DNA from: Sphagnum compactum
Lineage: Eukaryota
NCBI GenBank assembly: GCA_965153455.1
Contig: OZ234493.1
Coordinates: 16,606,213 to 16,670,212, forward strand
Length of the DNA stretch: 64,000 nt
Reading direction: 5' to 3'
A model generated the notes under the pieces. The model worked only from the letters and a program-made list of their open reading frames with translations. It was not told the DNA's origin and searched no databases. Shown in pieces: positions 26,501-64,000 of this stretch. Both the position numbers and the translations under genes were made by a program. How positions within the stretch are numbered: the stretch's first letter is position 1; each line of letters opens with the position of its first letter.

Positions 26501-27749
26501 GACAATGGTTACAACATGGATTCCTTTCAAATCTATGAATAATATGACTATCATTCCGAGTTTTAGTAATCTTCAAACCCATAATTAAAAAATTATTAAT
26601 TTCCAAGAAAATTGTTTCTAATGTCATGAAATTTAATGTAAATTTCCATGCAATACAATCTATTCAAATAGTTGCACATTACAAACATTTCAAAGTATAA
26701 CCTTTTTTTTTAAAATTGTTTACAAATATGTATGTGACCTTGGATGCAAGTAAGAATGGATACTTACAAAACCAATGAATAGGTGCCATTTTCCCAAGGC
26801 GAGATGTATTTATTTATATTAGTATCCACAACATATATTCCCCCCCCCCCCCCCCCCCCGCTAAATGTGGTGTGTTTATGTTTGTCTCATTGAAGATTCC
26901 ATTAAAGTTGCTTTGATCAATTGCATCAATAATTTTGAATAAATGATATTTCAAATTCCATGCGCCAAAACATGAACTATTGTAGCATTGAAATGGAAGT
27001 ACTTTAAATCCTATAAAAATTCTAAAAGATTTATGAAAAGTAAGTGTGATAAGCAAATGATTAAGAAGGCCAAATCCTAGTAACAACAATTGTGTTGAAT
27101 GACAACATATATTATAAAGAATTGTGAAACTTTGAGTTTATGGACCTATTGGAATACCTTTCCACATTTACAAAAAGGATAAATTAATTAAATGGACAAA
27201 TGTTACATTAAATATACATGTTGAATTTAATCATATAATGAATATACAAATCACATCCTTTTGGAAATGGAGCCAAATCTTTTCCATAGTGCGTTGAAAG
27301 GTTCTTGGATTAATGTGGCAATATATTGCAATCCTTTCTTTTTGTTCAATCCTTCCAAACCCTGCAAAACTTCTTGCATTTCCGGTCTTTGATTTGGGTC
27401 TTCCTATAAGAAACAAATGTCATAAAAGTTAGATGTTTATTATGTAATTGTTATACATTACAATCAAACCATGGCAAAATGCTCCAATAAATAGGACCAT
27501 ATGTTCATGTCTCAATTTTCATAACATAATTTGAACATGTATCCTTCAAAAAAGAGTGTAGAAACCAACTTATATTTGTATTCAACAACATAATTCTATG
27601 TTATTTGAAACTAGGATACTCAAATTGACTTTACATATCAATCATGCAAATGGTTTAAGGAATTCCAAATGAAATTGAATGTACCATTTGCATGTGCAAA
27701 CCTTCTTAAGAAGTTTTACATTCATTAATCAATCCAATTTAACTTATTT

Positions 27750-29201
27750 CACTAGTAGAAAAAGCGTGGTTTATGACTAAATTTTAGTCACAAACAACAT
27801 TTGCCACTAAAAGTTAGCCTAGTAGCAAATGACAAATTAGGAATGACGCTAGTTGCAAACAACAGATGAAATATTTGTTTTCATAAAATACACGTATGAC
27901 AATTTTACACATGTATCCAAGGATGAGTTCTTGCGACTACACTTACAACTACAATGTACAGCAATATGTTCACACCTGGTAACCTAAAAATGTAACACAT
28001 GGCATCATTTGAATTTTTTTCAATTATTCAATTAAAGCAATTTTATTGTGCCATGTGGTGGTTTAAGATTGAACGACATGACAACTTAAAATTTATAATC
28101 ATTTAAGGTTAATTTAAGGTTGGACCACTTATGATAGGCTAATTGGCACTTGAGCTAAGCCTAGGTTAGGCCACCTAACCTAATTAAATGCCTAATGTAC
28201 GTAACCTAATTTCAAGGTAAACCATTTAAAATAGGCCATGTGGCACCTAGGCTATGCCTAGGCCACCTAGCCATTGTCTAGCTTAGGTAGGTAGGTACTT
28301 AGGTCTAGGTCTAAATTGTTACAACAACATACAATTTTATTTTAAATTTAACCTATTATGTGGAGCGTATGTGATTAGCTCCTCCCATATGGCAACTAAA
28401 AAAATTTAATGTGTTTACACCAAATCAACCTATTTATATAGTTTGTAAATTTGAAATGGAAGACAAACAATATGGGATAAAATTTTATCTATAGCTCTTA
28501 GGCGCATAGTTCTAACCTAGTTGCAACTATTCCTTAAGATATACTATTACATAGCCTACCTACTAGGTAGCATAAGTTTTTACTAGGTAATAATTTAGAT
28601 AATATTTATTTGAAGTCAAAATTTAAATAGTTTAAAAATAATTATTTATTTAAAATACCTATTTAGATAGCCTCTAAATAAATATTTATAATTAAATAGG
28701 CCTATTAAGTAGCTAGTGGATACGTAGGCATGTATGTAGGTACCTAATAAATAGCTAGATAGCTAGGTAGATAAATGGTACATAGGTAGGTGTACATAGT
28801 AGGTAGGTAGGGTATATGCACCTAGTAAATAAATAGGTAGGTAGTAGGTAGGTAAGCATTTAGTAAGTAGGTATATACATATAGATAAATATGTATTATT
28901 AAATAATCTATATGTGTAGTTACTAGGTAACATATGTACCTTATGTACTTATAATGTAACTATTTTGGTTGCATGTGCAACTAAATGTATATATGATGTT
29001 GTAAAAATAAAAAGACATCATGAAAAATCAACCTATTGAAAAGATGAAATAGGTCATAATTGCAACCTAGTTGAAAAGAAGACCAAAATCCATCCAAATT
29101 TGAAAATTAGTTTCAGAGGCAACCATTCATAGTCATAAGCGACATTTAGTCGCACATAGTCACACAAGGAATGGTTGCAAATGACAAGATCTCTATTAGT
29201 G
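27750..29201. mobile_element. Non-autonomous CACTA element in the last intron of TPR-kinase copy A
   Basis: Termini CACTAGTAGA...TCTATTAGTG with TTT 3-bp TSD. Subterminal GTTGCAA/TAGTC repeats and an internal TAGG-rich low-complexity tract. Confidence 0.85.
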
Positions 29202-30662
29202 TTTCACATTGTTTCAAATATTACATTGAATCCATGATTTTAGGTTTTTGAAATTTGCTTGACCACAAATTGAATGATAAAATAAAAGATTTGGCACAAG
29301 ATTTACCTTGATGCATTAAAGGGAAATTTGCAAAAATGATTTGGCTTCATTTCGATCAAACCCAGCAATTGAATTATTAATTGCAACATCAAAAATTTGT
29401 TGAAATCCATCTTCTTCCTCTTGAACCTCTTGTACCCATTGGATAAAGTGGCGAATGTAAATTTCATTTCCATCTAAAGTCAATGGTGATCCATTCACAA
29501 GTCGAATCAACAATACTCCAAAGCTATACACATCACTTTTTGTCGATGCTTGATTTGAATGAATTTCTGGTGCCATATATCCGCTTGTTCCTGGCCTAGA
29601 AGTTGAAGCTAATGCAATCTGAATTTAAAATTTCAAAAATATCAATAATTTCAATGTGCGTTGCATGCATTGAATATACATGTCAAAATTCATAAAACCC
29701 ATACCCAATATGGTATAATACCAATAGGAAACTTGATTTTTTTTTAATCACAAAAGTCGCAATCCTTTTGTTATTACTTGTGCACACATAAAAATTTGTA
29801 ATATAAAATTTGTAATTTCATGAATTATTACATTAAGTGTTTTTCAAATATTCATTTTACATTGTGATTGTTTATCATATTTATTCCATGACCTATAATA
29901 ATGAAAATATAAAATTATTAAATTGTGGCCCACAAGAGTGTTCAAATTTGCAAAGTTCATAATTGCACTAAGATATAATGCCCATGCATTTAATCAACAA
30001 AAAAATAATGGTGGGGCACATACCACATTTTCATCCCTGCCATGTAAAATTTTTGCCAACCCAAAATCAGCCAATTTTGGGGTGTAATCCTTATCCAAGA
30101 GGATATTTCCTGGTTTGATGTCAAGATGAACAATGGTTGGATCACATTTATGATGCAAATGTGCCAATCCTCGAGCGACCCCTATAATGATGCATATTCG
30201 TTTGTCCCAATCCAAACGTTTATCTCCATCGAGCCATTTGTCAAGAGATGAATTTGAAATGTATTCATACACCAACATGTGTTTTAAACCTTTGATACAA
30301 TAGCCCAAAAGACGAACCAAATTCATATGTCGAATTGATCCCAAGGTGTTCATTTCTGATACGAAAGATTTTTTTGCACCTTCATTATGTTCACCACTCC
30401 ATTCCAAAACTTTAATCGCAATCGTAATGCCTTTCCAACAACTTTGATACACCTCACCATAGGCTCCTCTCCCTAAACTTGGTCCGAAATTCAATTCATC
30501 GTATGTAAAAGATCGAATACTTGAATTTAATGGCAACGATTCTATTATCGGTTGGTATTCATCGAACATCCATTTCAACCATTTTCGCTCTTGTTCATCA
30601 TTTGGTGTGAGATTATGAAGTTTATCAATGGCTTCCAATGCTGCTTGATATTTGTTTAAATT

Positions 30663-32090
30663 CCAATTCATGTGGGCATAAACTGTTAAAGTGAATGCAT
30701 CATTTGGTTCAAGAACATCAGCCTTGTCAAGGTCCTCCAAGGCTCCTTGATAGTCATCCAGGTTCCTTTTGATAGCTCCACGACTCCTCAAAGTGAATGC
30801 ATCATTTGGTTTAAGAACATGAGCCTTGTCAAGGTCCTCCAAGGCTCCTTGATAGTCATGCAACCTCCTTTTGACCTCTCCACGAACACTCAAAGTGAAT
30901 GCATTGTTTGGTTCAAGAACATGAGCCTTGTCAAGGTCCTCCAAGGCTCCTTGATAGTCATCCAACATTCTTTTGACATCTCCATGATGTCGCAAAATGA
31001 ATGCATCGTTTGGTTCAAGAAAATCAGCCTTGTCAAAGTCCTCCAAGGCTCCTTGATAGTCATCCAACATTCTTTTGACATCTCCACGAACACTCAAAGT
31101 GAATGCATTGTTTGGTTCAAGAACATGAGCCTTGTCAAGGTCGTCCAAGGCTCCTTGATAGTCATCCAACATTCTTTTGACATCTCCACGATGTCGCAAA
31201 GTGAATGCATTGTTTGGTTCAAGAACATCAGCCTTGTCAAGGTCCTCCAAGGCTCCTTGATTATCATCCAACATCCTCTTGACCTCTCCACGAGTTTGCA
31301 CAGTGAATGCATTGTTTGGTTCAAGAACATGAGCCTTGTCAAGGTCGTCCAAGGCTCCTTGATAGTCATGCAACATCCTTTTGACCTCTCCACGAATCCT
31401 CAAAGTGAATGCATCGTTTGGTTCAAAAACATTAGCCTTGTCAAGGTCCTCCAAGGCTCCTTAATAATCATCCAGGTTTCTTTTGATAGCTCCACGAACA
31501 CTCAAAGTGAATGCATCGTTTGGTTCAAGAACATCAGCCTTGTCAAGGTCCTCCAAGGCTCCTTGATAGTCATGCAAGATTATTTTGAAAGTTCCACGAA
31601 CACTCAAAGTGAATGCATCATTTGGTGCAAGAACATCAGAGTTGTGAAAAGCCTCTAAGGCTCCTTGATAGTCATCCAACATCGTTTTGACCTCTTCACG
31701 AATAGTCAAAGTGACTACATTGTTTGGTTCAAGAACATCAACTTTGTCAAGGTCCTCCAAGGCTCTTTGAAAGTCATGCAACATCTTTTTGACATTTCCA
31801 AAAATCTTCAAAGTGGTTACATTGCTTGGCGCAAGAACATCACCTTTGTGAAGGTCTTCCAATGCTCCTTGATACTCATCCAACATCTTTTTAACCTTTG
31901 CATGAATTCGCAAAATGAATGCATTGTTTGGTTGAAGAATATCAACCTTGTCAATGTTCTCCAAAGCTCTTTGATCGTCATTTGATATCCCTTTTACATT
32001 TTCATGAGTTGTCAAAGGGATTGCATTGTTTTGTTCAAGAACATCAACCTTGCCGAACTCCTCCAAAGCTCCTTGATAATCATTCAACAT
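30663..32090 (-). repeat. 102-bp coding tandem array, 14 TPR units
   Basis: 34-aa period AFTLxxRGxVKxMLxDYQGALEDLDKADVLEPNN, matching TPR consensus positions G8, Y17, A20, A27 and P32. Confidence 0.95.
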
Positions 32091-32823
32091 TCTTTTGACC
32101 TTTGCACAAGTTCACAAAGTGAATGCATCGTTTGGTTTAAGAACATGAACCTTGTCAAGGTCCTTGAAAGCTCTTTCATAATTGTTTAACACATGTTTGA
32201 CATATTAATAAAAATCCCTGAAATATGTGCAATGTTTGGTTTAATAACATCATGTTTGTCAAAGGCTTCAAAAGTTTTTTCATCTTCCTTGAAGACCTTT
32301 TTTTTCATGTGCACAAGTTCTTAAACTTAATGCACTTTTGGTTCATTGAAGATAAACCTTGTCAAGGTCTTTCAAGGCTACTTGATAATCTTTCAACACC
32401 TTTTTTTCACATTTTCCACGTGTGTTATTTAAATGATTCCATTGTTTAATTCATGAATAGTAGCCTTGTGAACGTCTTCCATGGTTTTTTCATAAGCATT
32501 TCATTTGTCAAGAACATGAAATAATGGAATATATATGTATATTGAACATGAAACAAAATAATTGTGATAGAGAATATTTTTTGGGGATATTCCACCAACC
32601 TATGTCACCTTACTTTCATATAGATTTGAAATGTAATCATTACTTACACAATGATTATCATACATAATTCTTATCATTGATGATTATTCCACTTAGTTTA
32701 AAGAATGTGATTTGGTAATAAACATTTCATTACATTATGCAATTTGTTCAATTCAATAAATGTAGATAAAAGATGTTGGTCCAAATCAATATATATTTTT
32801 CCATTTCTTGATGGAGCTAAGGT

Positions 32824-46100: not shown

Positions 46101-47492
46101 CTCAATTGTAAGTGATTGAACAACCTTAGAACTTCAATAGCTAGTTGAAGCTCTTTTTTTGTTTATAATAAACTATAGTATCTATATGCAAGTTAAGAAA
46201 AACACATAAAAAAATCTTTGATACATAAAGTCCTTGATGTTTTGTCCATACCCTAAACTTTAAATTCAATTTGTAAATGTTTTAAGACTTATCTACACAT
46301 GAGGAAATTTTGTTTGCCCACCTTAGTTTGGGTGCAATCATATGTACTTAAAATAACAACATTAAAAGGATGTTTGGTCATTTTGCATAATGGACATCGA
46401 GGTGTTTCTCAACTTGTGGTGGAATTTTGAATATTGTGACGTTTTCATCAATGTTCATGTTGATGTTGTATTTTAACTAGATTGTATAAATGATTAAGTA
46501 AGGGTAGACAACTAACAAAGACATGCAAAGAATGTTATTATTGAATATATAAATAAGAAGCTTTAGAAGAGGTGGTTATTTGGAAACATAAATGTTTGAA
46601 TAATTCCTAAACAAGGACTAGGGAAACCTCTATGAAATTCGTAAAATAGCCAATCCCACAAATGTTGATTGTAGAAACATTAACCATAATCAACTTGATG
46701 GAACTCTTGATGCCTTTTTTGGATCATTGATCAACATTTATGGAATCACCAACTTGGACATTTCATACAACAAATTTTCAAGGAATGTTTCAAGTTTATT
46801 CCATAACCGTTGTGAGTAAACAAAAACCTTTCATTGAAGTGGTTGCATCATGTTTTCTTTTCACCTTTAATGTAACATTGGAAATTTTGATCGTATTATA
46901 TATGCAATGATGGGACTCATAGTAATTGCTCTTCTAGTAGTGGTTATTAAAAATATTTGCTATATTTGATATCAATATATTCATTTGGACAAATTATTCC
47001 AACTCAGAATACTAATCTAGGGCATAATTAAAGTTATCATACATTTGAAACAACTTGAAAATTTCAATCTTGAGCCCTTTTTTTTAAATATGTCAAGTGG
47101 GAATATTTAACCTCTTTAAAAACTTATTATAATATATGGTGTATGATGAATAATCTTAATATCATAATGAGAAATCAAGAATTCATTGGGGGAAATTTCA
47201 ATTTATTTTCCAAGAAAGGTTATAATAAAATAATTCATTAATAATTTACAAATCATGGAAAGTATTGAGAATCTCATTAAAATGGATTGTAAAATGGATT
47301 TGTCTCGATTGAACTTAAATCTACAACTAATCGGATGGATTAAGCTATAAAAAGATATTGAAACAAACTTTTGGTTGCATGGTTCTCTTTGAATATTCCT
47401 TTGTTTTGTAAGTTGATGAACAATAATAACTTCAATGGTGATTTTCTTAATGTACCATCAACACTTCAAATTTTGGACATATCTAAAAATAA
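43192..47492 (+). pseudogene. 5' part of an LRR receptor-like kinase/protein pseudogene (signal peptide, LRRNT cap, LRR exons), truncated by the makorin duplication
   Basis: Exon 43192-43339: hydrophobic MFVLIIIIQLFMGVLS...RTNPAN. Exon 43527-43701: VALKQLYVEW...G*...DPCCNET*FGLLC...VIGL, with TAG at both cap-Trp positions (43595, 43646). Exon 45063-45137: ISGKPRLFENLPDEISNLHNLLKL. Exon 45947-46107: DLNGNALNGQI...LQILDLSSNQLIG. Exon 46675-46811: NINHNQLDGTL...LDISYNKFS. Exon ~47413-47492: [10 protein letters not shown]...LQILDISKN. Confidence 0.82.
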
Positions 47493-49679
47493 ATGCACAT
47501 TTTATCAGCGTGGCCTTTCTTCTTATGGCAGTCGCTGCAGGTATGTGCATGTAAAACTGTCCCGTCCAGTGTCAAATAATCCTCTCCCTCCCCTACCAAG
47601 ACCTTCAGTGGTAGCTCTTAACTCATCTCCAGACACAAGTAGGGCAGAAGAGAGCTCAAGCAATACCCCTACACAAAGTGCCTGGCAACTCACAGAAGGC
47701 AAGGCTAATTTGGGTCCCCGATTTCTGGAAGAAGATGATGAAAAGGATGTTGAAGAGATTGAAATGCCAACGTCCAACGACCCCAGTGAGATCCCAATCT
47801 GCGCGTCTGCAGCTGCTGGCATATGCCCTCGGGGTGATAACTGCCCGCAGATTCATGGTGACTTCTCCCCAACTTGTGGGAAGCATTGTTTGCATCCCTT
47901 TCGTCCATGAGAATGTGATAACCACAGGCAGCAGTGTGAACGTAACCAGAAGAAGCTTGAGGCACTTCGCAAGAGCCAAGATATTGAAGGCAGTGTCTGT
48001 CTGGAACGGGTGCTTTCAAAGCCAACAGTTGCTGAGCGGAAATTTGGATTAATGTCAGGTCATCCATTTTGTGTTGGCTGTATACGGGGTTGGCGGAGTG
48101 GTTCTCATGCACCAGGGATGGACATTGATACTGTTGTGCGGGCCTGCCCAGTTTGTCGAGTAACTTCACATTTTATAGTCCCAAGTGTTGTTTGGTACTC
48201 AAGTTCTGAAGTAAAGGAGGATATAATCAACGGCTATAAGAACAAGCTCAGGTGTGTGCATGAGACCTAAAGCTGTTTGTTCTATTTGATGTGCCTCTCA
48301 CAACTGGAGGTTTTATTACCCATCTGACATACTACTTGACAGATGGTGACCTGATACATAATTGTCCTTTAAGGTTATACTCACCCTATTATGGACCTGT
48401 CTAATGACCAGCCAGCTGGTTGGATTTTGACTTGCAAGATTGGCGCTGCCATTCTGGTAGGCTTGTCATGTGGCTGCACCCAGCTGTGACCATCAGTCTT
48501 TTATCTGGTCGGGTGCCTGATTTGTCAATATTTGTGTATATAGATTGTGCTCTGATTTGTCATAGGTGGGTGGTGTGTTGCACATTAAATGACTGGTGTA
48601 CGACCTCCTTTTCCATCCCTTCAACAATTCAAGCAATCAAGGAGATCAAGTGGACATGGAGGCATAAGGGGTGACCCCAAAGTCCTTATTGGTCTCTAGG
48701 TGTTTGCATTCTTATGTGAGAACATATAGAATGCTTTACCTTACCTCCTGATCCACAGACGTGTAAAAATACACGCACAATGTTTTTTGTAATTGAATGT
48801 TAGCGGTGTATTTGTGTGTGCGGTGATGTTGATTGTAAGTATTTTGACTATGGAAATGGAACATGTCCCTTTGGAACTAGCTGCTTCTACAAGGTAAGGA
48901 AACCAGCTTTTTTTGTTCTCTGTCCTCTGTGCAACTCAAATTGTCATGTCAGAGTGTAGCTGACCCCCATGTGACCATGTTGTCTTAACACATTTGACAA
49001 TTCCGGTTGGCATCAGATGCTCCTGCTCAGGATTTTGCATATTTAGCTGGTTTCATATGTTGAATTTCCTTCATCTGCAGCATATGTTTAGCGATGGAAG
49101 TAGGGAGGAGGTGAAGTTACGGCACCTTGGTGCTGCTGATGGGAACACTGTCATTGCCAAAAATGTTCGGTAAGCTTTTCAGGCTCCCCTTGCTGAAAGG
49201 TTTTCTCCTTTGTTTTTGACCGATCCTTAGGAGCTTTGTAGTTTTCATGAAATTATTAACATCTTTGGTCAGGATGTAAGATGACCAAAGATGTTCAAGA
49301 TCCATACATCATTTTAAGCTCAAGACTACCCTGCCGTGATTTTTTGTGGCTTCCTGACTGCAATTGTCCATGTCCTTTGATATCAGACCTTAAATGTGTT
49401 GCTGGCTGGTCAAGGGAGAAATTATTCTGGCAGATAAAGGGTTTGAGTGTTGCAACTTCTGAAAGCTTCTGCCCTCTCTAATGTTGGAGAAGGATTTCAT
49501 TCTATTCTGCATTTTGAACGTTATGTGCCACTTGTTGTAATGGTTTGCAGTTTTTGAATCCAATGTTGTTTTGATTTTCTCTTGATATGGACAGGTTATC
49601 GGACTTCCTGGACTGATTGGTTAATGCCAGGTGAACTGGATGGATGAGAATGCAAGCGGGAACCAACATGGAGACTTAG
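47493..49679 (+). pseudogene. MKRN: Makorin pseudogene, copy 2 (5'-truncated, fused in frame to an LRR exon)
   Basis: Begins at CTFYQRG with no acceptor of its own. Carries the same TGA (47908-47910), RING lesions and GG acceptor as copy 1. Additional Cys>Ser in the CCCH finger and a TGA at 49614-49616. Confidence 0.9.
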
Positions 49680-50141: not shown

Positions 50142-50257
50142 GATTATGCTCACAGCTTTCAGTTTGCGCATGACTTTGTTTTTCCCCTCAATTAGAACAT
50201 TGTTTTCTCAGTGTTCCTGTCATGTGTGTGTAGTGATTGTTGTATGATCATGTGCAG

Positions 50258-52445
50258 GTATGCACATTTTATCAGCGTGGCCTTTGTTCTTATGGCAGTC
50301 GTTGCAGGTATGAGCATGTAAAACTGTCCCGTCCAGTGTCAAATAATCCTCTCCCTCCCCTACCAAGACCTTCAGTGGTAACTCTTACCTCATCTCCAGA
50401 CACAAGTAGGGCAGAAGAGAGCTCAAGCAATACCCCTACACAAAGTGCCTGGCAACTCACAGAAGGCAAGGCTAATTTGGGTCCCCGATTTCTGGAAGAA
50501 GATGATGAAAAGGATGTTGAAGAGATTGAAATGCCAACGTCCAACGACCCCAGTGAGACCCCAATCTGCGCGTTTGCAGCTGCTGGCATATGCCCTCGGG
50601 GTGATAACTGCCCGCAGATTCATGGTGACTTCTCCCCAACTTGTGGGAAGCATTGTTTGCATCCCTTTCGTCCATGAGAATGTGATAACCACAGGCAGCA
50701 GTGTGAACGTAACCAGAAGAAGCTTGAGGCACTTCGCAAGAGCCAAGATATTGAAGGCAGTGTCTGTCTGGAACGGGTGCTTTCAAAAACAACAGTTGCT
50801 GAGCGGAAATTTGGATTAATGTCAGGTCATCCATTTCGTGTTGGCTGTATACGGGGTTGGCGGAGTGGTTCTCATGCACCAGGGATGGACATTGATACTG
50901 TTGTGCGGGCCTGCCCAGTTTGTCGAGTAACTTCACATTTTATAGTCCCAAGTGTTGTTTGGTACTCAAGTTCTGAAGTAAAGGAGGATATAATCAACGG
51001 CTATAAGAACAAGCTCAGGTGTGTGCATGAGACCTAAAGCTGTTTGTTCTATTTGATGTGCCTCTCACAACTTGAGGTTTTATTACCCATCTGACATACT
51101 ACTTGACAGATGGTGACCTGATACATAATTGTCCTTTAAGATTATACTCACCCTATTATGGACCTGTCTAATGACCAGCCAGCTGGTTGGATTTTGACTT
51201 GCAAGATTGGCGCAGCCATTCTGGTAGGCTTGTCTTGTGGCTGCACCCAGCTGTGACCATCAGTCTTTTATCTGGTCGGGTGCCTGATTTGTCAATATTT
51301 GTGTATATAGATTGTGCTCTGATTTGTCATAGGTGGGTGGTGTGTTGCACATTAAATGACTGGAATACGACCTCCTTTTCCATCCCTTCAACAATTCAAG
51401 CAAACAAGGAGATCAAGTGGACATGGAGGCATAAGGGGTGACCCCAAAGTCCTTATTGGTCTCTAGGTGTTTGCATTCTTATGTGAGAACATATAGAATG
51501 CTTTACCTTACCTCCTGATCCACAGACGTGTAAAAATACACGCACAATTTTTTTGTAATTGAATGTTAGCGGTGTATTTGTGTGTGCGGTGATGTTGATT
51601 GTAAGTATTTTGACTATGGAAATGGAACATGTCCCTTTGGAACTAGCTGCTTCTACAAGGTAAGGAAACCAGCTTTTTTTGTTCTCTGTCCTCTGTGCAA
51701 CTCAAATTGTCATGTCAGAGTGTAGCTGACCCCCATGTGACCATGTTGTCTTAACACATTTGACAATTCCGGTTGGCATCAGATGCTCCTGCTCAGGATT
51801 TTGCATATTTAGCCGGTTTCATATGTTGAATTTCCTTCATCTGCAGCATATGTTTAGAGATGGAAGTAGGGAGGAGGTGAAGTTACGGCACCTTGGTGCT
51901 GCTGATGGGAACACTGTCATTGCCAAAAATGCTCGGTAAGCTTTTCAGGCTCCCATTGCTGAAAGGTTTTCTCCTTTGTTTTTGACCGATCCTTAGGAGC
52001 TTTGTGGTTTTCATGAAATTATTAACATCTTTGGTCAGGATGTAAGATGACCAAAGATGTTCAAGATGCATACATCATTTTAAGCTCAAGACTACCCTGC
52101 CGTGATTTTTTGTGGCTTCCTGACTGCAATTGTCCATGTCCTTTGATATCAGACCTTAAATGTGTTGCTGGCAGGTCAAGGGAGAAATTATTCTGGAAGA
52201 TAAAGGGTTTGAGTGTTGCAACTTCTGAAAGCTTCTGTCCTCTCTAATGCTGGAGAAGGATTTCATTCTATTCTGCATTTTGAACGTTATGTGCCACTTG
52301 TTGTAATGGTTTGCAGTTTTTGAATCCAATGTTGTTTTGATTTTCTCTTGATATGGACAGGTTATCGGACTTCCTGGACAGATTGGTTAATGCCAGGGGA
52401 ACTGGATGGATGAGAATGCAAGCGGGAACCAACATGGAGACTTAG
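50258..52445 (+). pseudogene. MKRN: Makorin pseudogene, copy 3 (lacks first zinc-finger exon)
   Basis: Exon 50258-51018 carries the TGA at 50675-50677, the shared RING lesions and an extra HPFC>HPFR. Downstream exons are as in copy 1; terminal TAG at 52443-52445. Confidence 0.9.
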
Positions 52446-55400
52446 CTTGCCAAAAATACTAATATGACAGGAAGGACCAAGTCTTTAAGGGCTCTTGACA
52501 CAAAGGACTGCACACAACATGTGCATTCATAATCTGTAAGCTTTTACTTTGCCCCAGCAATTCTACCCGCACTCAAACGGGTTGCCTGACTGATCTATGG
52601 GGTAGTAAAGATTCATACCCTGTTGTCCAGATATCATGATCTGTGCAGAGATGGTAGTTGTGTTATCAAGTAAGTTCCAGGGTTGTCTGACTGATCAATG
52701 GGGTAATTGGATTGTTATATATACTTCCCTACACCCACTATTGGGAGCTGATGAAGTGAGTAGGGTGTTGTGGCAGCTAGTCATTGCTATTCATAGTGAA
52801 ATTGATTGTCTGATACTTTGCAAGTGACACTTGTCATGTTATGACCATACTGAATTTCATCATCTGAGTTTTGCTTGTACTAGAATTGACCCAATGGTTA
52901 GGCCTTCACAGTGTTGCTGTGGAGTTTTCTTTGCATTCTCATAGAGATGTCATCTTCCTACTGATAAGAACATATTGCTGGCTCATGTTGATAATGGCTC
53001 ACCTCTAGCAGTTGGTCAGCCTTCACTTGGACGGATAGTCTTTGAATTCATCTGAAATCATCCTGGTGATATTTGCTTGTTTTAGATATGATCTGAGGAT
53101 GTGAATTTGCGAACAAGGAGGGGAGAATATTAAAGGCCTCGGAAGTACTTTGTTTGCAACTACCAAAGAACTTGAATAGACAGTGAGATGTGCAGTTGAC
53201 ATTGACATTTAAGGTGTGTTGTATTCAATGTATTCATTGAACTTTTGTTGTCTAATCCACCTGAAATGTCAGGTGTCAGTATACTATCTGAGCTATTACA
53301 GTAAAAAAACTCTTCAAATCTGTGTCAGCTTCTCTGCAATGAAAATGCCAGTGTGCATTGCACCTTCAAAAGTTAGTTTCTTGGATGGAGCACATTCTTT
53401 TCTGTCTTCAGAAGAATGGAATGCTAGTAGTATGAGATGTTTTATGACCTCGTCATTTGATTCATTGCTAGGATATCGGACTCAGAAGTTTGGTTCTACT
53501 GAATTTAGAAGCACACTTCTTGTGTCAGCATGGACATCTAAAATTATTTTACAGGATCTTCAACCTTGCAGGCCTTAGCAAGATTGCGTAATTCTTAGGG
53601 TGTTGAAACACAGTTGGATGACTCATACACCCAGTACCTCGTGACCCCAACTCCATTAGAACAAGGTTGGCTACAATGTTCAAACATCCAGAATGACAAT
53701 TGTACAATGGTGAATTTGGGTATTTTTCTAAGTATTGTGAAGCCATCTCCACCAAGATAGAATATCGCTTGCACTATTTGTGGATTTATGTCCCAATTCA
53801 CCTATCCCACCAAATCTGGTCCAACCTCTAAAGCCCAAGATTGGAATGGGTGAAAATCTCTCTTTTGCCTCCAAATTGTAACTCAATTCAAGATTAGCCA
53901 CCATGGCCATGGAATTGGAATTCATGAAATCACATTGCCCTTAATGAGCATCCATGGCATCAACAACTTTAGTTGTTTTGGACATGGTTCACATATGCCC
54001 TTATTTCAAGGGAAAAACATTTTTTTGTTAAAGAAGAATGCCAACTTTGTTGCAAGTTCCTTCACAATAACATGAGGGATTGACAAAGAAGCAACACATT
54101 CTAGGATGGGGTGTGATCACTACAAGTTAAAAGAACATATTTGTTCAGCTGCAACACCTACTTTCCCAGAAGGAAGTGACGAATGTTAAAACATGACATT
54201 GCAAAGTTTTATGGTTATGTGGTTGTGTTGAATGAATCTATGAACTAATTTGAAAAAGATACTCTACATAAAGTGGTGGACATTCTCCAAGCTTGGTGAT
54301 TTAATGAAAATCTTTAGTTGTTGTCTTTAGAATGTTATAGGAATATAGTGTAGGTTGCACTTCTCTATTCAAGAACTTTGCAAAATAATGACTTGTAAAC
54401 TTAATACACATCACAAATTGTCAATAACTATATTACAAATTATACAAAATGTTTTGTAAATTCAAGGTTGTGATAATTACTCATACAAATATTTTTCTAA
54501 AACATATTTTAGCCACAACTCTAATTCAAGATTTATGTTCTAAGCTTTCAATCTAATATGCACAAATGAAAACTTTTGGATTTAGAAGTTGGCTTACCAT
54601 ATTGGATTTCACATAAAATTTATCATATTTGCATGATATCTCCAAAATGTGATTGCAAATATGATACTTCCCACAATCACAAAAAAGGGAAGTATTGTTG
54701 ATAGTGTCAATTTTAACATCTAGTCATTTGTTCGGGGGGGGGAAGAGGGGGGGTTCCCTAAATAAATTGATGATACCTTGTTACCACGTATAGTTGGACA
54801 TTCATATTGAATCTTTTGATAACCTTGTTAACATGTTTGTGTTGTAACATATGTACATATATAAATTATAATAACTTCAACATAAACTTAGTAATATTTC
54901 AAATCTAGTTGAAGAATTGTGGATAAGTTGTATGCTTGATGTAAACTTTTTGAAAACCCATTTACATATAACATTATTCTAGTGATGTAGGAATTGATTA
55001 TATGGGGTTCTTTGCAAAAGGTTTTGTATGTCACTTTTACATGACCATTCTAGTCGTATGGTCGTCCTTGGAACCATTCCAAAGACAATTTCGAAATAAC
55101 TACCTCATTTTCAAGCTTAACTACTTCATACCTACTTTCTTTCCTATTAACTTTCATAATCAACATTTCTCACCTTTCCTAATAACTACTTCTATTTTAT
55201 AACTACCTCACTCCTTTTTCCTATCCACCAACATGGATTTTCAAATAAAATTAACATGTGTCTTTTCATGTCCATGAATTTTAGATTAATTTAAATTAAA
55301 TTTGATATTGACATAAATACATGAAAACATTTATTTTAAAAATAGTTGAATGTCACTAGTAGTGTGCAATAACGTGGAAGTCAAATGTAATACATATGAT

Positions 55401-56159
55401 TAGTTATTGTAAAAATTTGAGACAATGGTTACAACATGGATTCCTTTCAAATCTATGAATAATATGACTATCATTCCGAGTTTTAGTAATCTTCAAACCC
55501 ATAATTAAAAAATTATTAATTTCCAAGAAAATTGTTTCTAATGTCATGAAATTTAATGTAAATTTCCATGCAATACAATCTATTCAAATAGTTGCACATT
55601 ACAAACATTTCAAAGTATAACCTTTTTTTTAAAAATTGTTTACAAATATGTATGTGACCTTGGATGCAAGTAAGAATGGATACTTACAAAACTAATGAAT
55701 AGGTGCCATTTTCCCAAGGCGAGATGTATTTAGTTATATTATTATCCACAACATATATTCCCCCCCCCCCCAAATGTGGTGTGTTTATGTTTGTCACATT
55801 GAAGATTCCATTAAAGTTGCTTTGATCAATTGCATCCATAATTTTGAATAAATGATATTTCAAATTCCATGTGCCAAAACATGAACTATTGTAGCATTGA
55901 AATGGAAGTACTCTAAATCCCATAAAAATTCTAAAAGATCTATGAAAAGTAATTGTGATAAGCGAATGATTAAGAAGGCCAAATCCTAGTAACAACAATT
56001 GTGTTGAATGACAACATATATTATAAAGAATTGTGAAGCTTTGAGTTTATGGACCTACTGGAATACCTTTCCACATTTACAAAAAGGATAAATTAATTAA
56101 ATGGACAAATGTTACATTAAATATACATGTTGAATTTAGTCATATAATGAATATACAAA

Positions 56160-59100
56160 TCACATCCTTTTGGAAGTGGAGTCAAATCTTTTCCATAGTG
56201 TGTTAAAAGGTTCTTGGATTAATGTGGCAATATGTTGCAATCCTTTCTTTTTGTTCAATCCTTCCAAACGCTGCAAAACTTCTTGCATTTCCAGTCTTTG
56301 ATTTGGGTCTTCCTGTAAGAAACAAATGTCATAAAAGTTAGATGTTTATTATGTAATTGTTATACATTACAATCAAACCATGGCCAAATGCTCCAATAAA
56401 TAGGACCATATGTTCATGTCTCAATTTTCATAACATAATTTGAACATATATCCTTCAAAAAGGAATGTAGAAACCAACTTATATTTGTATTCAACAACAT
56501 AATTTTATGTTATTTGAAACTAGGATACTCAAATTGACTTTACATATCAATCATGCAAACGGTTTAAGGAATTCCAAATGAAATTGAATGTACCATTTGC
56601 ATGTGCAAACCTTCTTAAGAAGTTTTACATTCATTAATCAGCCCAATTTAACTTATTTCACTAGTAGAAAAAGCGTGGTTTATGACTAAATTTTAGTCAC
56701 AAACAACATTTGCCACTAAAAGTTAGCCTAGTAGCAAATGACAAATTAGGAACGACGCTAGTTGCAAACAACAGATGAAATATTTGTTTTCATAGAATAC
56801 ACGTATGACAATCTTACACATGTATTCAAGGATGAGTTCTTTCGACTACACTTACAACTACAATGTACAACAATATGTTCACACCTGGTAACCTAAGAAT
56901 GTAACACATGGCATCATTTGAATTTTTTTCAACTATTCAATTAAAGCAATTTTATTGTGCCATGTGGTGGCTTAAGATTCAACGACGTGACAACTTAAAA
57001 TTTATAATCATTTAACGTTAATTTAAGGTTGGACCACTTATGATAGGCTAATTGGCACTTGAGCTAAGCCTAGGTTAGGCCACCTAACCTAATTAAGTGC
57101 CTAATGTACCTAACCTGATTTCAAGGTAAACCATTTAAAATAGGCCATGTGGCACCTAGGCTATGCCTAGGCCACCTAGCCATTGTCTAGCTTAGGTAGG
57201 TAGATACTTAGGTCTAGGTCTAAATTGTTACAACAACATACAATTTTATTTTAAATTTAACCTATTATGTGGAGCGTATGTGATTAGCTCCTCCCATATG
57301 GCAACTAAAACAATTTAATGTGTTTACACCAAATCAACCTATTTATATAGTTTGTAAATTTGAAATGGAAGACAAACAGTATGGGATAAAATTTTATCTA
57401 TAGCTCTTAGTCGCATAGTTCTAACCTAGTTACAACTATTCCTTAAGATATACTATTACATTGCCTACCTACTAGGTAGCATAAGTTTTTACTAGGTAAT
57501 AATTTAGATAATATTTATTTGAAGTCAAAATTTAAATAGTTTAAAAATAATTATTTATTTAAAATACATATTTAGATAGCCTCTAAATAAATATTTATAA
57601 TTAAATAGGCCTATTAAGTAGCTAGTGGATACGTAGGTATGTATGTAGGTACCTAATAAATAGCTGGGTAGCTAGGTAGATAAATGGTACATAGGTAGGT
57701 GTACATAGTAGGTAGGTAGGGTATATGCACCTAGTAAATAAATAGGTAGGTATATGGTACATATGTGGGTACCTAGTAATTAAGTAGGTAGGTAGGTAAT
57801 TAGGTAGGTAAGCATTTAGTAGGTAGGTATATACATATAGATAAATATGTATTATTAAATAATATATATGTGTAGTTACTAGGTAACATATGTACCTTAT
57901 GTAAGTATAATGTAACTATTTTGGTTGCATGTGCAACTAAATGTATATATGATGTTGTAAAAACAAAAAGACATCATGAAAAATCAACCTATTAAAAAGA
58001 TGAAACAGGTCATAATTGCAACGTAGTTGAAAAGAAGACCAAAATCCATCCAAATTTGAAAATTAGTTTCAGAGGCAACCATTCATAGTCATAAGCGACA
58101 TTTAGTTGCACATAGTCACACAAGGAATGGTTGCAAATGACAAGATTTCTATTAGTGTTTCACATTGTTTCAAATATTACATTGAATCCATGATTTTAGG
58201 TTTTTGAAATTTGCTTGACCACAAATTGAATGACAAAATAAAAGATTTGGCATAAGATTTACCTTGATGCATTGAAGGGAAATTTGCAAAAATGATTTGG
58301 CTTCATTTCGATCAAACCCAACAATTGAATTGTTAATTGCAACATCAAAAATTTGTTGAAATCCATCTTCTTCCTCTTGAACCTTTTGTACCCATCGGAT
58401 AAATTGGTGAATGTAAATTTCATTTCCATCTAAAGTCAATGGTGATCCATTCACAAGTCGAATCAACAATACTCCAAAGCTATACACATCACTTTTTGTC
58501 GATGCTTGATTTGAAAGAATTTCTGGTGCCATATATCCGCTTGTTCCTGGCCTAGAAGTTGAAGCTAATGCAATCTGAATTTAAAATTTCAAAAATGTCA
58601 ATAATTTCAATGGGCGTTGCATGCATTGAATATACATGTCAAAACCCATACCCAATATGGTATAATACCAATAGGAAACTTGATTTTTTTTTAATCACAA
58701 AAGTCGCAATCCTTTTGTTATTACTTGTGCACACATAAAAAGAAATTTTGTAATATAAAATTTGTAATTTCATGAATTATTATATTAAGTGTTTTCCAAA
58801 TATTCATTTTACATTGTGATTGTTTATCATATTTATTCCATGACCTATAATAATGAAAATATATAATTATTAAATTGTGGCCCACAATAGTGTTCAAATT
58901 TGCAAAGTTCATAATTGCACTAAGATATAATGCCCATGCATTTCATCAACAAAAAAAGAATGGTGGGGCACATACCACATTTTCATCCCTGCCATGTAAA
59001 ATTTTTGCCAACCCAAAATCAGCCAATTTTGGGGTGTAATCCTTATCCAAAAGGATATTTCCTGGTTTGATGTCAAGATGAACAATGGTTGGATCACATT

Positions 59101-62100
59101 TATGATGCAAATATGCCAATCCTCGAGCGACCCCTATAATGATGCATATTCGTTTGTCCCAATCCAAACGTTTATCTCCATCGAGCCATTTGTCAAGAGA
59201 TGAATTTGAAATGTATTCATACACCAACATGTGTTTTAAGCCTTTGATACAATAGCCCAAAAGACGAACCAAATTCATATGTCGAATTGATCCCAAGGTG
59301 TTCATTTCTGATACGAAAGATTTTTTTGCACCTTCATTATGTTCACCACTCCATTCCAAAACTTTAATCGCAATCATAATGCCTTTCCAACAACTTTGAT
59401 ACACCTCACCATAGGCTCCTCTCCCCAAACTTGGTCCGAAATTCAATTCATCGTATGTAAAAGATCGAATACTAGAATTTAATGGCAACGATTCTATTAT
59501 CGGTTGGTATTCATCGAACATCCATTTCAACCATTTTCGCTCTTGTTCATCATATGGTGTGAGATTATGAAGTTTATCCATGGCTTCCAATGCTGCTTGA
59601 TATTTGTTTAAACTCAAATTCATGTGGGCATAAACTATTAAAGTGAATGCATTGTTTGGTTCAAGAACATGAGCCTTGTCAAGGTCCTCCAAGGCTCCTT
59701 GATAGTCATCCAAGTTCCTTTTGATAGCTCCACGAACACTCAAAGTTAATGCATCATTTGGTTCAAGAACATCAGCCTTGTCAAGGTCCTTCAAGGCTCC
59801 TTTATAGTCATGCAACATCCTTTTGACCTCTCCACGATGTCGCAAAGTGAATGCATTGTTTGGTTCAAGAACATCAACCTTGTCAAGGTCCTCCAAGGCT
59901 ACTTGATAATCATCCAACATGTATTTGACAAGTCCACGAATTCGCAAAGTGAATGCATTGTTTGGTTCAAGAACATCAGCCTTGTCAAGGTCCTCCAAGG
60001 CTCCTTGAAAGTCATGCAACATCCTTTTGGCCCCTCCACGATGTCGCAAATTGAATGCATTGTTCGGTTTAAGAACATGAGCTTTGTCAAGGTCCTCCAA
60101 GGCTCCTTGATAGTCATGCATCATCCTTTTGACCACTCCACGACCATTCAAAGTGAATGCATTGTTTGGTTCAAGAACATCAGCCTTGTCAAGGTCCTCC
60201 AAGGCTCCTTGATAGTCATGCAACATCCTTTTGACATCTCCACGATGTTGCAAAGTGAATGCATTGTTTGGTTGAAGAACATCAACCTTGTCAAGGTCCT
60301 CTAAGGCTCCTTGATAGTCATCCAGGTTCCTTTTGATAGCGCCACGATGTTGTAAAGTGAATGCATTGTTTGGTTCAAGAACATCAGCCTTGTCAAGGTC
60401 CTCCAAGGCTCCTTGATAGTCATGCAACATTTTTTTGACCTCTCCACGAGTCTTCAAAATGAATACATCATTTGGTTCAAGAACATGAGCCTTGTCAAGG
60501 TCCTCCAAGGCTCCTTGATAGTCATGCAACATCCTTTTGACATCTCCACGACTCCTTAAAGTGAATGTATTGTTTGGTTCAAGAACATCAGCCTTGTCAA
60601 GGTCCTCCAAGGCTACTTGATAGTCATGCAACATCCTTTTGACCTTTCCACGAGTTTGCAAAGTGAATGCATTGTTTGGTTCAAGAACATCAGCCTTGTG
60701 AAGGTCCTCTAGGGCTCCTTGATAGTCATCCAACATGCTTTTGACCTCTTCACGATGTCGTAAAATGAATGCATTGTTTGGTTCAAGAACATCAGCCTTG
60801 TCAAGGTCCTCCAAGGCTACTTGATAGTCATGCAACATCCTTTTGACCTTTCCACGAGTTTGCAAAGTGAATGCATTGTTTGGTTCAAGAACATCAGCCT
60901 TGTCAAGGTCCTCCAAGGCTCCTTGATAGTCATGCAACATCCTTTTGACCTCTCCACGATGTCGTAAAGTGAATGCATTGTTTGGTTCAAGAACATCAGC
61001 CTTGTCAAGGTCCTTCAAGCCTCTTTGATAGTCATGCAACATCCTTTTAACCTCTCCACGAACATTCAAAGTGAATGCATTGTTTGGTTCAAGAGCATCA
61101 GCTTCGTCAAGATCCTCCAAGGCTCCTTGATAGTCATGCAACATTTTTTTTACATCTCCACGAACATTCAAAGTGAATGCATTGTTTGGTTCAAGAACAT
61201 CAGCTTCGTCAAGATCCTCCAAGGCTCCTTGATAGTCATGCAATATTTTTTTGACCTCTCCACGAGTCTTCAAATTGAATGCATCATTTGGTTCAAGAAC
61301 ATGAGCCTTGTCAAGGTCCTCCAAGGCTCCTTGATAGTCATGCAACATCCTTTTGACATCTCCACGACTCTTCAAAGTGAATGCATTGTTTGGTTCAAGA
61401 ACATCAGCCTTGTCAAGGTCCTCCAAGGCTCTTTGATAGTCATGCAACATTTTTTTGACCTCTCCACGAGTCTTCAAAATGAATGCATCATTTGGTTCAA
61501 GAACATGAGCCATGTCAAGGTCCTCCAAGGCTCCTTGATAGTCATGCAACATCCTTTTGACATCTCCACGACTCCTCAAAGTGAATGCATCGTTTGGTTC
61601 AAGAACATCAGCCTTGTCAAGGTCCTCCAAGGCTCTTTGATAGTCATGCAACATCCTTTTGACCTCTCCACGAGTTTGCAAAGTGAATGCATTGTTTGGT
61701 TCAAGAACATCAGCCTTGTCAAGGTCCTCCAAGGCTCCTTGATAGTCTTTTAACTTCTTTTTTACAGCTCCACGAACACTCAAAGTGAATGCATTGTTTG
61801 GTTCAAGAACATGAGCTTTGTTAAGGTCCTCCAAGGCTCTTTGATAGTCATGCAAGATTATTTTGAAAGCTCCACGAACACTCAAAGTGAATGCATCATT
61901 TGGTGCAAGAACATCAGCCTTGTGAAGAGCTTCTAAAGCTCCTTGATAGTCATCCAACATCGTTTTGACCTCTCCACGAATAGTCAAAGTGACTACATTG
62001 TTTGGTTCAAGAACATCAACTTTGTCAAGGTCCTCCAAGGCTCTTTGAAAGTCATGCAACATCTTTTTGACATTTCCACAAATCTTCAAAGTGGTTACAT

Positions 62101-62368
62101 TGCTTGGCGCAAGAACATCACCCTTGTGAAGGTCCTCCAATGTTCTTTGATACTCATCCAACATCTTTTTAACCTTTGCACGAATTCGCAAAATGAATGC
62201 ATTGTTTGGTTGAAGAATATCAACCTTGTCAATGTTCTCCGAAGCTCCTTGATAGTCATTTGACATCTCTTTTACATTTTCATGAGTCTTCGAAGTGATT
62301 GCATTGTTTTGTTCAAGAACATCAACCTTGTCGAACTCCTCCAAAGCTCCTTGATAATCATTCAACAT
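56160..62368 (-). CDS. TPR-repeat (27 units) / non-RD RLK-Pelle-type Ser/Thr kinase, copy B, apparently intact, ~1285 aa
   Basis: Exons 62368-58976 (1131 codons), 58574-58263 (104 codons) and 56312-56160 (50 codons + TGA), joined by phase-0 GT-AG introns with no internal stop. Kinase motifs GRGAYG, IAIK, SFVSE, HLDIKPGNILLD, DFGLAK, GTSGYMAPE, DVYSFG and CIKEDPNQR. No signal peptide or TM segment seen. True 5' end uncertain. Confidence 0.88.
56659..58157. mobile_element. Non-autonomous CACTA element in the last intron of TPR-kinase copy B
   Basis: TIRs CACTAGTAGAAA / TTTCTATTAGTG with TTT TSD. Same insertion site as 27750-29201, so it predates the duplication. Confidence 0.88.
59615..62368 (-). 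repeat. 102-bp coding tandem array, 27 TPR units
   Basis: 34-aa period throughout. The ORF is exactly 1326 bp (13 x 102) longer than the equivalent span in copy A. Confidence 0.97.
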
Positions 62369-62775
62369 TCTTTTGACCTTTGCACGAGTTCACAAAGTGA
62401 ATGCATCGTTTGGTTTAAGAACATGAACCTTGTCAAGGTCCTTGAAAACTTTTTCATAATTGTTTAACACATGTTTGACATAATAATAAAAATCCCTAAA
62501 ATATGTGCAATGCTTGGTTTAATAACATCATGTTTGTCAAAGTGTTCAAAAGTGTTTTCATCTTCCTTGAAAACCTTTTTTTTCATATGCACAAGTTCTT
62601 AAACTTAATGCACTTTTGGTTCATTGAACATAAACCTTGTCAAGGTTTTTCAAGGCTACTTGATAATCTTTCAACACCTTTTTTTCGCGTTTTTCACATG
62701 TGTTATTTAAATGATTCCATTGTTTGATTCATGAACACTAGCCTTGTGAAGGTCATCCATCGTTTTTTCATAAGC
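62369..62775 (-). repeat. About four decayed TPR units upstream of the ORF (also 32091-32500)
   Basis: Minus strand reads YEKTMDDLHKASVHESNN, DYQVALKNLDKV and NYEKVFKDLDKVHVLKPNDAFTL*TRAKVKR, with stops and frameshifts. The in-frame TGA at 62390-62392 is shared with copy A (32112-32114). Confidence 0.8.
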
Positions 62776-64000
62776 ATTTCATTTGTCAAGAACATGAAAT
62801 AATGGAATATATATATATATATATATATATTGAACATGAAACAAAATAATTGTGATAGAGATTTTTTTGGGGGATATTCCACCAACCTATGCCACCTTAC
62901 TTTCGTATAGATTTGAAATGTAATCATTACTTACACAATGATTAGGATACATAATTCTTATCATTGATGATTATTCCACTTAGTTTAAAGAATGTTATTT
63001 GGTAATAAACATTTCATTACATTATGCAATTTGTTCAATTCAATAAATGTAGATAAAAGATGTGCGTCCACATCAATATATATTTTTCCACTTTTTGATG
63101 GAGCTAAGGTGGCAAGCATTCTTAGGCAAAATTTGATTTAACTAATAACATTGTTTCAAGGAACTTTTAATTGTTGCAAAACTATTTTGAATAGCTAGCT
63201 AATGCGAGTTCAATTTTGTTCAAATTAAACTTTTTAATATAATCCCGTTTGAAACCTAAAAATATCGTATTCATGTTTTAGTTATCCACTCATTCCATTC
63301 ATCACAACCTTCATACCTTTCACATCCTTGATTAAGAACACAAACTTAGTTTTGACGTTGCAAGACATATTGAGTTCAAGATGATAAAAGTTTGTGTGTG
63401 AAACACATACCTACAAGTTTTGAGAAGTTGCAAAAGATGTGATGTTCAAATGACCTTGATAGTTTTTGTTGTCTTTTAGCATTGGTTGCTAGCCCAATGA
63501 AATGCATGTGAACGCTGTAGCAATCAAGAAAAACACCAAGTTAACCCACCTTAATAGAAAATCATGGTAGATGAGCATTTGTGCAAATTTGAATCATTAT
63601 AGAATCGTTACTTGAGGTCAAATATTCATAACATTACTAATGCGTTCAAGGACATGGAACCAAAGTTTTGGTGTTTGAGACCTACCAAGTTTGACATAAA
63701 AGACGTGATTATATGTGAAAAGCATTTGCACGCGGTGATTGAATGATGAACACTTCTCTTGTTGTTGCGTTGAGCCACAAAGCCGTATAAACATATGTGA
63801 AGAGATTGATGGCAATAGTGCAAGAAGGGAACCAACCTCGATAAAAGTTTGTAGCAAACTCGCGATTGCAAATTTGAGCCAAGGGAGAATTAGTACATTG
63901 GATTCCTTGCATTTATGCCGGACTCATGAACATCTTGGAAGGTGTTTCTGATTAGAGGTTGAGAGAAAGGATCCAAGTGGTCCTTCTAGGATGGTGCAAA

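Follow-up and report, generated by a model that had tools for sequence, protein, structure and literature searches.

How a receptor-type protein kinase comes to stand behind a long array of tetratricopeptide repeats (TPRs) in a protein without a membrane anchor, and whether its catalytic loop tells anything about the function of such a protein, are questions raised by a gene of the peat moss Sphagnum compactum. The gene lies on contig OZ234493.1 of assembly GCA_965153455.1, in a window of 64,000 nucleotides (positions 16,606,213 to 16,670,212 of the forward strand); "the window" means this whole stretch, and coordinates below are counted from its first letter. The window is AT-rich eukaryotic DNA (GC 30-44%), and all best protein matches of the gene come from Sphagnum peat mosses. 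We call this gene copy A, and a tandem twin in the same window copy B. We propose, with a probability of about one half, that copy A is an intact member of a Sphagnum-specific family of soluble proteins that combine a TPR array with a non-RD serine/threonine kinase from the RLK/Pelle group (RLK, receptor-like kinase), and that this family has a role in recognition.

The gene is encoded on the minus strand throughout. Its three coding pieces, 62389-58976, 58574-58263 and 56312-56163, specify 28 TPR units followed by a complete kinase, and yield a conceptual product of 1292 amino acids in a frame that runs over the three exons without a stop. Four of four splice sites are canonical, both introns being of the GT..AG type and in phase 0. 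The parts of the gene are as follows:

62390-62392, minus strand: in-frame stop immediately 5' of the frame of the large exon
58976..62389, minus strand: large coding exon, a 1138-codon open frame in which kinase subdomains I-VII follow on 28 TPR units and a hydrophilic linker
62368, minus strand: first Met of the large coding exon, MLNDYQGALEEF
59640..62442, minus strand: TPR array as DNA, with a 102-bp period, 27.5 copies, 85% matches and no indels
58976..59470, minus strand: juxtamembrane-like IRSFTYDEL segment and kinase N-lobe as far as DFG, with Gly loop, IAIK Lys, alphaC Glu, HLD and DFG
58575..58975, minus strand: intron 1, 401 nt, GT..AG (GT at 58975, AG at 58576-58575), phase 0
58263..58574, minus strand: exon 2, with activation segment, APE and subdomains IX to early XI, IALASTSRPGTSGYMAPE...SLQCIK
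56313..58262, minus strand: intron 2, 1950 nt, GT..AG (GT at 58262, AG at 56314-56313), phase 0
56160..56312, minus strand: last coding exon, EDPNQRLEMQEVLQRLEGL..., with subdomain XI Arg; coding to 56163, stop at 56160-56162
56033..56159, minus strand: likely 3' untranslated region (UTR); read depth drops, and 5 molecules end at 56033

To follow splicing we used RNA placed on 55800-59700, from one polyA RNA-seq run (X24, raw reads) and three contig runs (X1, X3 and X6). In X24 the first intron is removed by joining 58976 to 58574 (33+1 reads, 17 starts) and the second by joining 58263 to 56312 (41 reads, 27 starts); the first joint recurs in contigs of X1, X3 and X6, and the second in a contig of X1. 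Both joints read CT..AC on the plus strand, that is GT..AG on the minus strand, and in nearly all X24 pairs it is the first mate that lies on the plus strand, the pattern that minus-strand RNA gives in stranded libraries of the standard kind. The X24 depth is 50-80 over the exons and 0-4 over intron 2. Over intron 1 it is about 15 in the 5' third and about 0-5 beyond; a minority of transcripts may retain this intron or end inside it, and such partial retention or an alternative 3' end may give a product without the kinase C-lobe. The fall in depth near 56033 probably marks the polyadenylation site. A preliminary description of the locus, made from the letters alone, had named the introns 58975-58575 and 58262-56313, and these are spliced exactly so in transcripts that are 95-99% similar to copy A. 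It had also considered an outcome in which splicing fails and the product ends at CAPPFFFC; this is not the main form, as both introns are skipped by polyA reads. Some metagenome gene calls do end at CAPPFFFC, and we rejected a read-through protein of this kind since such calls come from genomic DNA and are no evidence for a protein. A low-complexity stretch rich in TACC/TACCTACC at 57600-57900, within intron 2, attracts depth from metatranscriptome contigs and is probably a dispersed repeat.

The spliced kinase is 329 residues long, counted from the end of the linker, and carries the following motifs:

59425-59408, minus strand: Gly loop GRGAYG
59365-59363, minus strand: IAIK Lys
59308-59306, minus strand: alphaC Glu (FVSEM)
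59045..59080, minus strand: catalytic loop HLDIKPGNILLD, in which Leu takes the place of the Arg of RD kinases (HLD at 59080-59072)
59020-59012, minus strand: DFG
58529-58521, minus strand: APE (GYMAPE), exon 2
exon 2, minus strand: subdomain IX Asp (KSDVYSFG)
56297-56295, minus strand: subdomain XI Arg (EDPNQR), exon 3

As had been stated at the outset, this is a non-RD kinase with its catalytic residues intact: Lys46, Glu65, Asp143, Lys145, Asn148, DFG and APE are all retained in copy A, and so is the subdomain XI Arg. The Pfam models Pkinase and PK_Tyr_Ser-Thr both score above their cut-offs (exon 1, 104.9 bits; exon 2, 42.9 bits), with Pkinase covering profile positions 5-151 on exon 1 (residues 986-1134 of the product) and positions 155-241 on exon 2. 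In an alignment to BRI1 the Lys, the HLD (on the HRD of BRI1) and the DFG fall on their counterparts, and in an alignment to IRAK4 the same is true of APE and subdomain IX. The earlier statement that no transmembrane segment lies between the TPRs and the kinase is also borne out: the linker is hydrophilic, and the maximal 19-residue Kyte-Doolittle mean over the 1292 residues is 1.31, located in the kinase C-lobe. A Pfam scan of the gene gave no match to a lectin or GUB_WAK ectodomain, nor to NB-ARC or NACHT. It is well supported that the locus encodes a soluble (cytosolic or nuclear) TPR-array protein with an intact non-RD kinase of the RLK/Pelle type. With such a kinase, and with neither ectodomain nor signal peptide nor transmembrane helix, it is a receptor-like cytoplasmic kinase (RLCK) in the broad sense, its N-terminus being unmapped and a small upstream exon possible.

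The assignment to RLK/Pelle draws on both lobes and on phylogeny. In a structure search with exon 1 the first 29 rows are, by depositor name, plant receptor-like or cytoplasmic kinases and IRAK1 (5 names are uninformative); BRI1 scores 118.5 bits, and the first clearly different kinase, CTR1, 86.7 bits. Exon 2, which encodes the C-lobe, finds IRAK4 and plant RLKs best, and the best solved relatives overall are BRI1, BAK1, CERK1, SYMRK and IRAK1/4. A database search listed 120 matches, of which 119 are plant or unnamed and one (P0117) is a fungal kinase-like protein with 31% identity; among the matches listed the best relatives outside Sphagnum are plant RLKs. We then computed two trees, a quick one with 60 rows and a careful one with 42, labelling the reference rows by their ectodomain Pfam families and source names. 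The references are top database matches and not a curated kinome, with one non-RLK outgroup row, and LRR-XII (FLS2, EFR, XA21), WAK and BSK references are absent from the trees. The 18 rows omitted from the careful tree are the fungal row, two CrRLK1L, one unnamed, one oddly placed CRK, copy B and twelve rows that were redundant (six from Sphagnum, three of CRK, two of SD and one of LRK10L type). The Sphagnum kinases form a clade with 100/100 support and a stem of 1.16 changes per column, and this clade is nested with the CRK, SD and LRK10L rows against an outgroup side of LRR-I, RLCK-VII, L-lectin and CrRLK1L (92/97). The kinase domain is thus closest to RLK/RLCK/IRAK proteins and lies inside their family in phylogeny, in agreement with the preliminary description.

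We regard it as very improbable that the kinase lies outside RLK/Pelle after all, or that it is a pseudokinase that binds only nucleotide or partners. The use of top database matches as references, with one outgroup row, and the long Sphagnum stem leave some room for the former, and the latter has precedents among relatives in which the catalytic-loop Lys is lost (of 120, 7 have Asn and 1 has Arg) or the DFG Asp is replaced (of 118, 4 have Asn and 1 has Ile). These relatives may represent paralogous pseudokinases, or their gene calls may be fragmentary and in error; copy A, by contrast, has every catalytic residue, and the ranking of RLK/RLCK/IRAK structures first for both lobes and the 92/97 nesting speak against a position outside the family.

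Within RLK/Pelle the tree joins the Sphagnum clade, at a moderate support of 91/85, to the G-lectin SD rows, the LRK10-like rows, one row each from a fern and from an LRR-bearing protein (P0012), and three Triticeae WD40-MSP kinases; the CRK rows lie outside this group. The likeness to SD-2 and LRK10-like kinases that had been noted before is therefore moderately backed by phylogeny, but the Sphagnum kinases form a separate, long-stemmed clade that is nested in neither subfamily, and their placement within the group is left unresolved by the tree. The G-lectin (SD-2b-type) and LRK10-like proteins are the nearest kinases listed outside Sphagnum (45-53% identity over exon 1, 198-213 bits per domain), and they share the HxDIKPxNILLD form of the non-RD loop, with HCD or HLD in 13 of 13 SD rows and HFD in 5 of 5 LRK10L rows. 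They are, however, anchored in the membrane by a transmembrane helix and have an ectodomain of the lectin or GUB_WAK type, both of which the Sphagnum protein lacks, and it belongs to SD-2b or LRK10L-2 neither by nesting nor by architecture. The whole group that contains the Sphagnum clade is non-RD (HCD, HLD or HFD), the three WD40-MSP kinases, the fern row and P0012 included, and every tree row outside it has HRD. Most simply, then, the Leu of the HLD would be a legacy of the parent lineage. Non-RD kinases are regulated otherwise than by autophosphorylation of the activation loop and have been linked to innate-immune receptors, according to the accessible part of one paper (PMC9992409). Since the parent group shows the non-RD state throughout, and the Sphagnum kinases most simply inherited it from there, this state is weak evidence for immunity and does not count as independent, and the earlier argument that the loop independently supports an immune role does not hold.

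To delineate the family we used the kinase part as a query and examined the best 120 of 875 short matches, as clusters at 90% identity. These are 67-93% identical to the kinase; 20 of the 120 carry an organism name, in each case Sphagnum (7 species), and the remaining 100 are predictions from metagenomes or transcriptomes that bear no such name. The long proteins listed include two from Sphagnum, at 77% and 71%, and every other match is at 53% or below. A family profile was also searched against 1.84 billion representatives; the top-150 list consists mostly of multi-kinase proteins with summed scores, and the matches were re-scored per domain. Among the matches listed only family fragments exceed 300 bits per domain, and the best outside domain has 213 bits; single-domain relatives at 213-288 bits would escape this listing, so that intermediates outside Sphagnum are possible. 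Judged by these sequence comparisons, the TPR-kinase family appears to be specific to Sphagnum and much duplicated, and of a cytosolic kinase-fusion or RLCK-like type. Its members are already public as hypothetical proteins, and a literature search that did not extend to papers in subscription journals found no paper on a Sphagnum family of TPR-receptor-type kinases.

Conservation within the family is strong at the catalytic centre, with the VAIK Lys in 122 of 122 proteins, the HxD Asp in 119 of 120 and the DFG Asp in 113 of 118. The residue before the catalytic Asp is Leu in 117, Phe in 2, Ile in 1 and Arg in 0 of the 120 (among 122 proteins) that cover it, and wherever a family protein has 40 or more residues upstream of the kinase, TPR motifs occur in them (71 of 71). 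As the Leu is fixed and the TPRs are found in all of these proteins, both the fusion and the Leu predate the radiation of the family. The further idea that a receptor kinase domain was recruited behind an existing TPR sensor is not supported as it had been argued, and the data do not decide which part came first. The closest long relative, P0003 (Sphagnum balticum, partial, 77%), has about 400 residues of leucine-rich repeats followed by a single TPR remnant and the kinase; its layout is either a second family architecture or a merged gene model.

Duplication is also seen at the locus itself. The window holds a segmental duplication of about 29 kb, in which 54000-64000 matches 25065-35033 at 89-97% identity, and the second segment contains the twin gene:

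27254..32111, minus strand: copy B, tandem paralogue with the same exons and splice sites, kinase region about 97% identical to copy A

Copy B has a stop at 31458-31460 inside the TPR array and another in kinase exon 2 (Gln276 to stop), and with these two in-frame stops it is a pseudogene. Its TPR tract is about 1.5 kb long, against 2.8 kb in copy A, and has fewer units. The kinases of the two copies differ in 21 codons, 15 of them non-synonymously.

The TPR array of copy A consists of 28 units in perfect 34-residue phase, and Pfam finds TPR_1/TPR_2 many times, together with Pkinase, on one open frame. Among the 23 well-kept units variation is focused at unit positions 10, 11, 14 and 17, with entropies of 2.4, 2.4, 2.3 and 1.7 bits, and at most 1.2 bits at all other positions. 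The i, i+1, i+4, i+7 spacing of these positions fits one face of a helix. Relative to the consensus codon there are 122 non-synonymous and 26 synonymous differences, and 58 of the 122 fall at the four positions. By this pattern the TPR solenoid would bind a protein or peptide ligand via the face that carries the hypervariable positions 10, 11, 14 and 17. Ligand binding might then alter the output of the kinase, either by relieving a TPR-mediated inhibition or by bringing kinase domains together, and the kinase would phosphorylate downstream substrates. As a non-RD enzyme it could have an ordered catalytic centre without the need for activation-loop phosphorylation. The role of such a protein may be to recognise variable non-self or stress-related ligands, much as is done by the intracellular kinase-fusion resistance proteins of cereals.

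This proposal of recognition builds on the lineage-specific expansion, on tandem duplication with pseudogenisation, on the change in repeat number, on the focused variability of the repeats and on the cereal precedent. A different role, in signalling of an ordinary kind that has no part in immunity (growth, hormones, abiotic stress), in which the TPRs serve as a scaffold or in autoinhibition as in BSK kinases and the Leu is simply inherited, is conceivable, and we hold it as a tentative alternative. It would accommodate the non-RD loop, which as a trait of all rows of the parent group says nothing specific on immunity, and the family-wide conservation of catalytic residues is what any working kinase would show. 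Nor is an immune-type domain found nearby: neither the gene nor the 21 open frames of at least 75 residues upstream of copies A and B contain NB-ARC, TIR or other such domains above Pfam cut-offs. Hs1pro-1_C (17 bits) and DUF4728 (17.7 bits) appeared in the upstream frames below threshold and were discarded. A housekeeping role, however, does not predict at least 120 clusters at 90% identity that all come from Sphagnum or from unnamed peat samples, nor tandem duplication with pseudogenisation, nor a change in repeat number between twins, nor variation at four TPR positions.

Comparison with known systems helps to place the proposed recognition protein. The BSK kinases (RLCK-XII) join an RLK/Pelle cytoplasmic kinase and TPRs in one polypeptide, which begins with the kinase and has a few C-terminal TPRs. 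The Sphagnum protein does not share this layout, as its order is reversed, the TPR array preceding the kinase, and its units number 28 and are near-identical. The TPR part as a query also finds a protein of the moss Ceratodon purpureus (P0243, 44%) and Glomeromycota and unnamed proteins that carry a kinase. The proteins with TPRs followed by an RD kinase are P0243, P0252, P0267, P0269, P0273 and P0278; they have the same order of domains, and their TPRs are 35-54% identical to the Sphagnum array. Their kinases, on the other hand, are of the RD type (HRDLKSSN-like) and score 30-95 bits against the Sphagnum kinase, compared with about 180-206 bits for plant RLKs. Being RD and low-scoring, the kinase partner in these proteins is unrelated, and the notion that the fusion is common to other mosses was rejected for the kinase part. 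The layout of TPRs followed by a kinase would accordingly seem, from sequence, to have been built with two different kinases. Fungal NLR-like proteins contain highly similar TPR, ANK or WD repeats with variation at a few surface positions. The long array of near-identical repeats is shared with the Sphagnum protein, which lacks the central NACHT or NB-ARC domain of NLR/STAND proteins and has a kinase as its output.

A parallel in architecture is found in cereals, where kinase-fusion resistance proteins are documented in the accessible parts of three papers (PMC10260399, PMC10260397, PMC12830362). The kinase-fusion and tandem-kinase resistance proteins (for example Lr9, Sr43, Pm4 and WTK4) are likewise intracellular, and combine a receptor-kinase-type domain with a non-kinase module, without a transmembrane segment and without NB-ARC. 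In Sphagnum, which is a moss, the module consists of 28 TPR units and precedes one kinase only, and no resistance phenotype is known. The three Triticeae WD40-MSP kinases, with an HLD loop, fall in the same non-RD group of the tree; their membership of the resistance class is not established. A survey of NLRs in non-flowering plants mentions, in its accessible part, kinase-NLRs and TIR-NBARC-TPR proteins but not the Sphagnum TPR-kinase family (10.1101/2022.10.19.512840).

Several observations weigh against reading copy A as an intact recognition protein, and some of them bear on whether this particular copy works at all. The 5' end and the start codon of the gene are not defined, with an in-frame stop at 62390-62392 just upstream and decayed TPR-like units with several stops in 62390-62800 (minus strand), so placed that the 5' edge of the array looks eroded. 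The transcripts are not those of copy A to the letter: 1993 of the 2205 X24 reads placed on the region are only 95-99% alike, and there are 13 coding sites where the X24 reads differ from copy A without exception or almost so (58 of 58 at 58332; 67 of 67 at 59376). The reads have the letter of copy B at 28 of the 40 listed differences from copy A, with 104 further differences beyond those; they appear to be without the copy B stop codon, the site of which lies outside the 40 listed differences. As the reads differ from copy A and appear to lack the stop of copy B, they derive from a third, very close sequence, either one more paralogue, it may be, or the orthologue of a different genotype or species. 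Splicing and polyadenylation are thus demonstrated for this type of gene, in the 95-99% similar transcripts, and not for the exact copy A, whose own expression is not demonstrated. With the transcripts as outside reference the kinase of copy A shows changes of its own, by the author's count 10 non-synonymous ones and 2 synonymous, a ratio that fits relaxed constraint as well as adaptation. One of its residues, the Leu after the subdomain XI Arg (Pro286Leu), replaces a Pro that is present in 16 of 16 relatives. In the TPR array the 122 to 26 is a bare count of codon differences, and an immune role of the TPR-kinase is plausible by analogy, on which the proposed recognition also rests.

From these data it could be argued that copy A is a young non-functional or silent duplicate, with a frame that is open merely for lack of time; we consider this rather unlikely. 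In its favour, the letters of copy A are absent in all four runs at 56234, 56293, 58332, 59113 and, in the 3' UTR, 56139, which are the sites covered by all four (the other listed coding sites are covered by X24 alone, or by X24 and X1). Yet the RNA runs may stem from other genotypes or species, in which case the absence of these letters is expected. The 10 to 2 changes, Pro286Leu at an invariant residue and the pseudogene state of the tandem twin point in the same direction, as does the in-frame stop just 5' of the TPR frame; this stop, however, is common to copies A and B, and the Met at 62368 matches the annotated start position of several relatives. A decayed copy is further at odds with a frame of 1292 codons that is open over three exons with four canonical splice sites. 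Family-wide conservation of 95% or more is found in 116 columns, and copy A departs at one only of these (Pro286Leu); for eight annotated relatives the number is 0-4 of about 118 such columns. This single change is within the range of the annotated relatives, which speaks against decay of copy A, and we retain the reading of copy A as an intact member of its family.

Some neighbouring features of the window complete the picture of the duplication. A makorin-like CCCH zinc-finger gene occurs three times on the plus strand, one of them partial (21294-24635, 47362-48172 and 50237-53578), as part of the duplication of about 29 kb. Relative to copy A, copy B is parted from its upstream flank by an insertion, which is possibly a transposon fragment; it holds open frames of similar composition without a Pfam match, at 33094-33489 and 12468-13146.

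In cereals, disease-resistance proteins have recently come to light that are receptor-type kinases with a new sensor in place of the lost membrane part, and the Sphagnum family raises the question of equivalents in early-diverging land plants. It is a tentative and as yet doubtful suggestion that Sphagnum has a class of intracellular receptors of its own, in which an array of near-identical TPR units that diversifies rapidly, at four surface positions and in copy number, is read out directly by a non-RD receptor-type kinase without NB-ARC. If true, kinase-fusion resistance proteins of cereals, and likewise recognition by repeats in fungal NLR-like proteins, would have a counterpart in a moss. 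The family offers a clean lineage-specific case, with one fusion event, one fixed non-RD loop, many paralogues and variable repeat positions that can be mapped. It also shows that the non-RD state can reflect ancestry, and should not be taken as an independent sign of immunity. Given that peat mosses are ecologically dominant and closely associated with microbes, a dedicated family of intracellular sensors in these plants would be worth testing.

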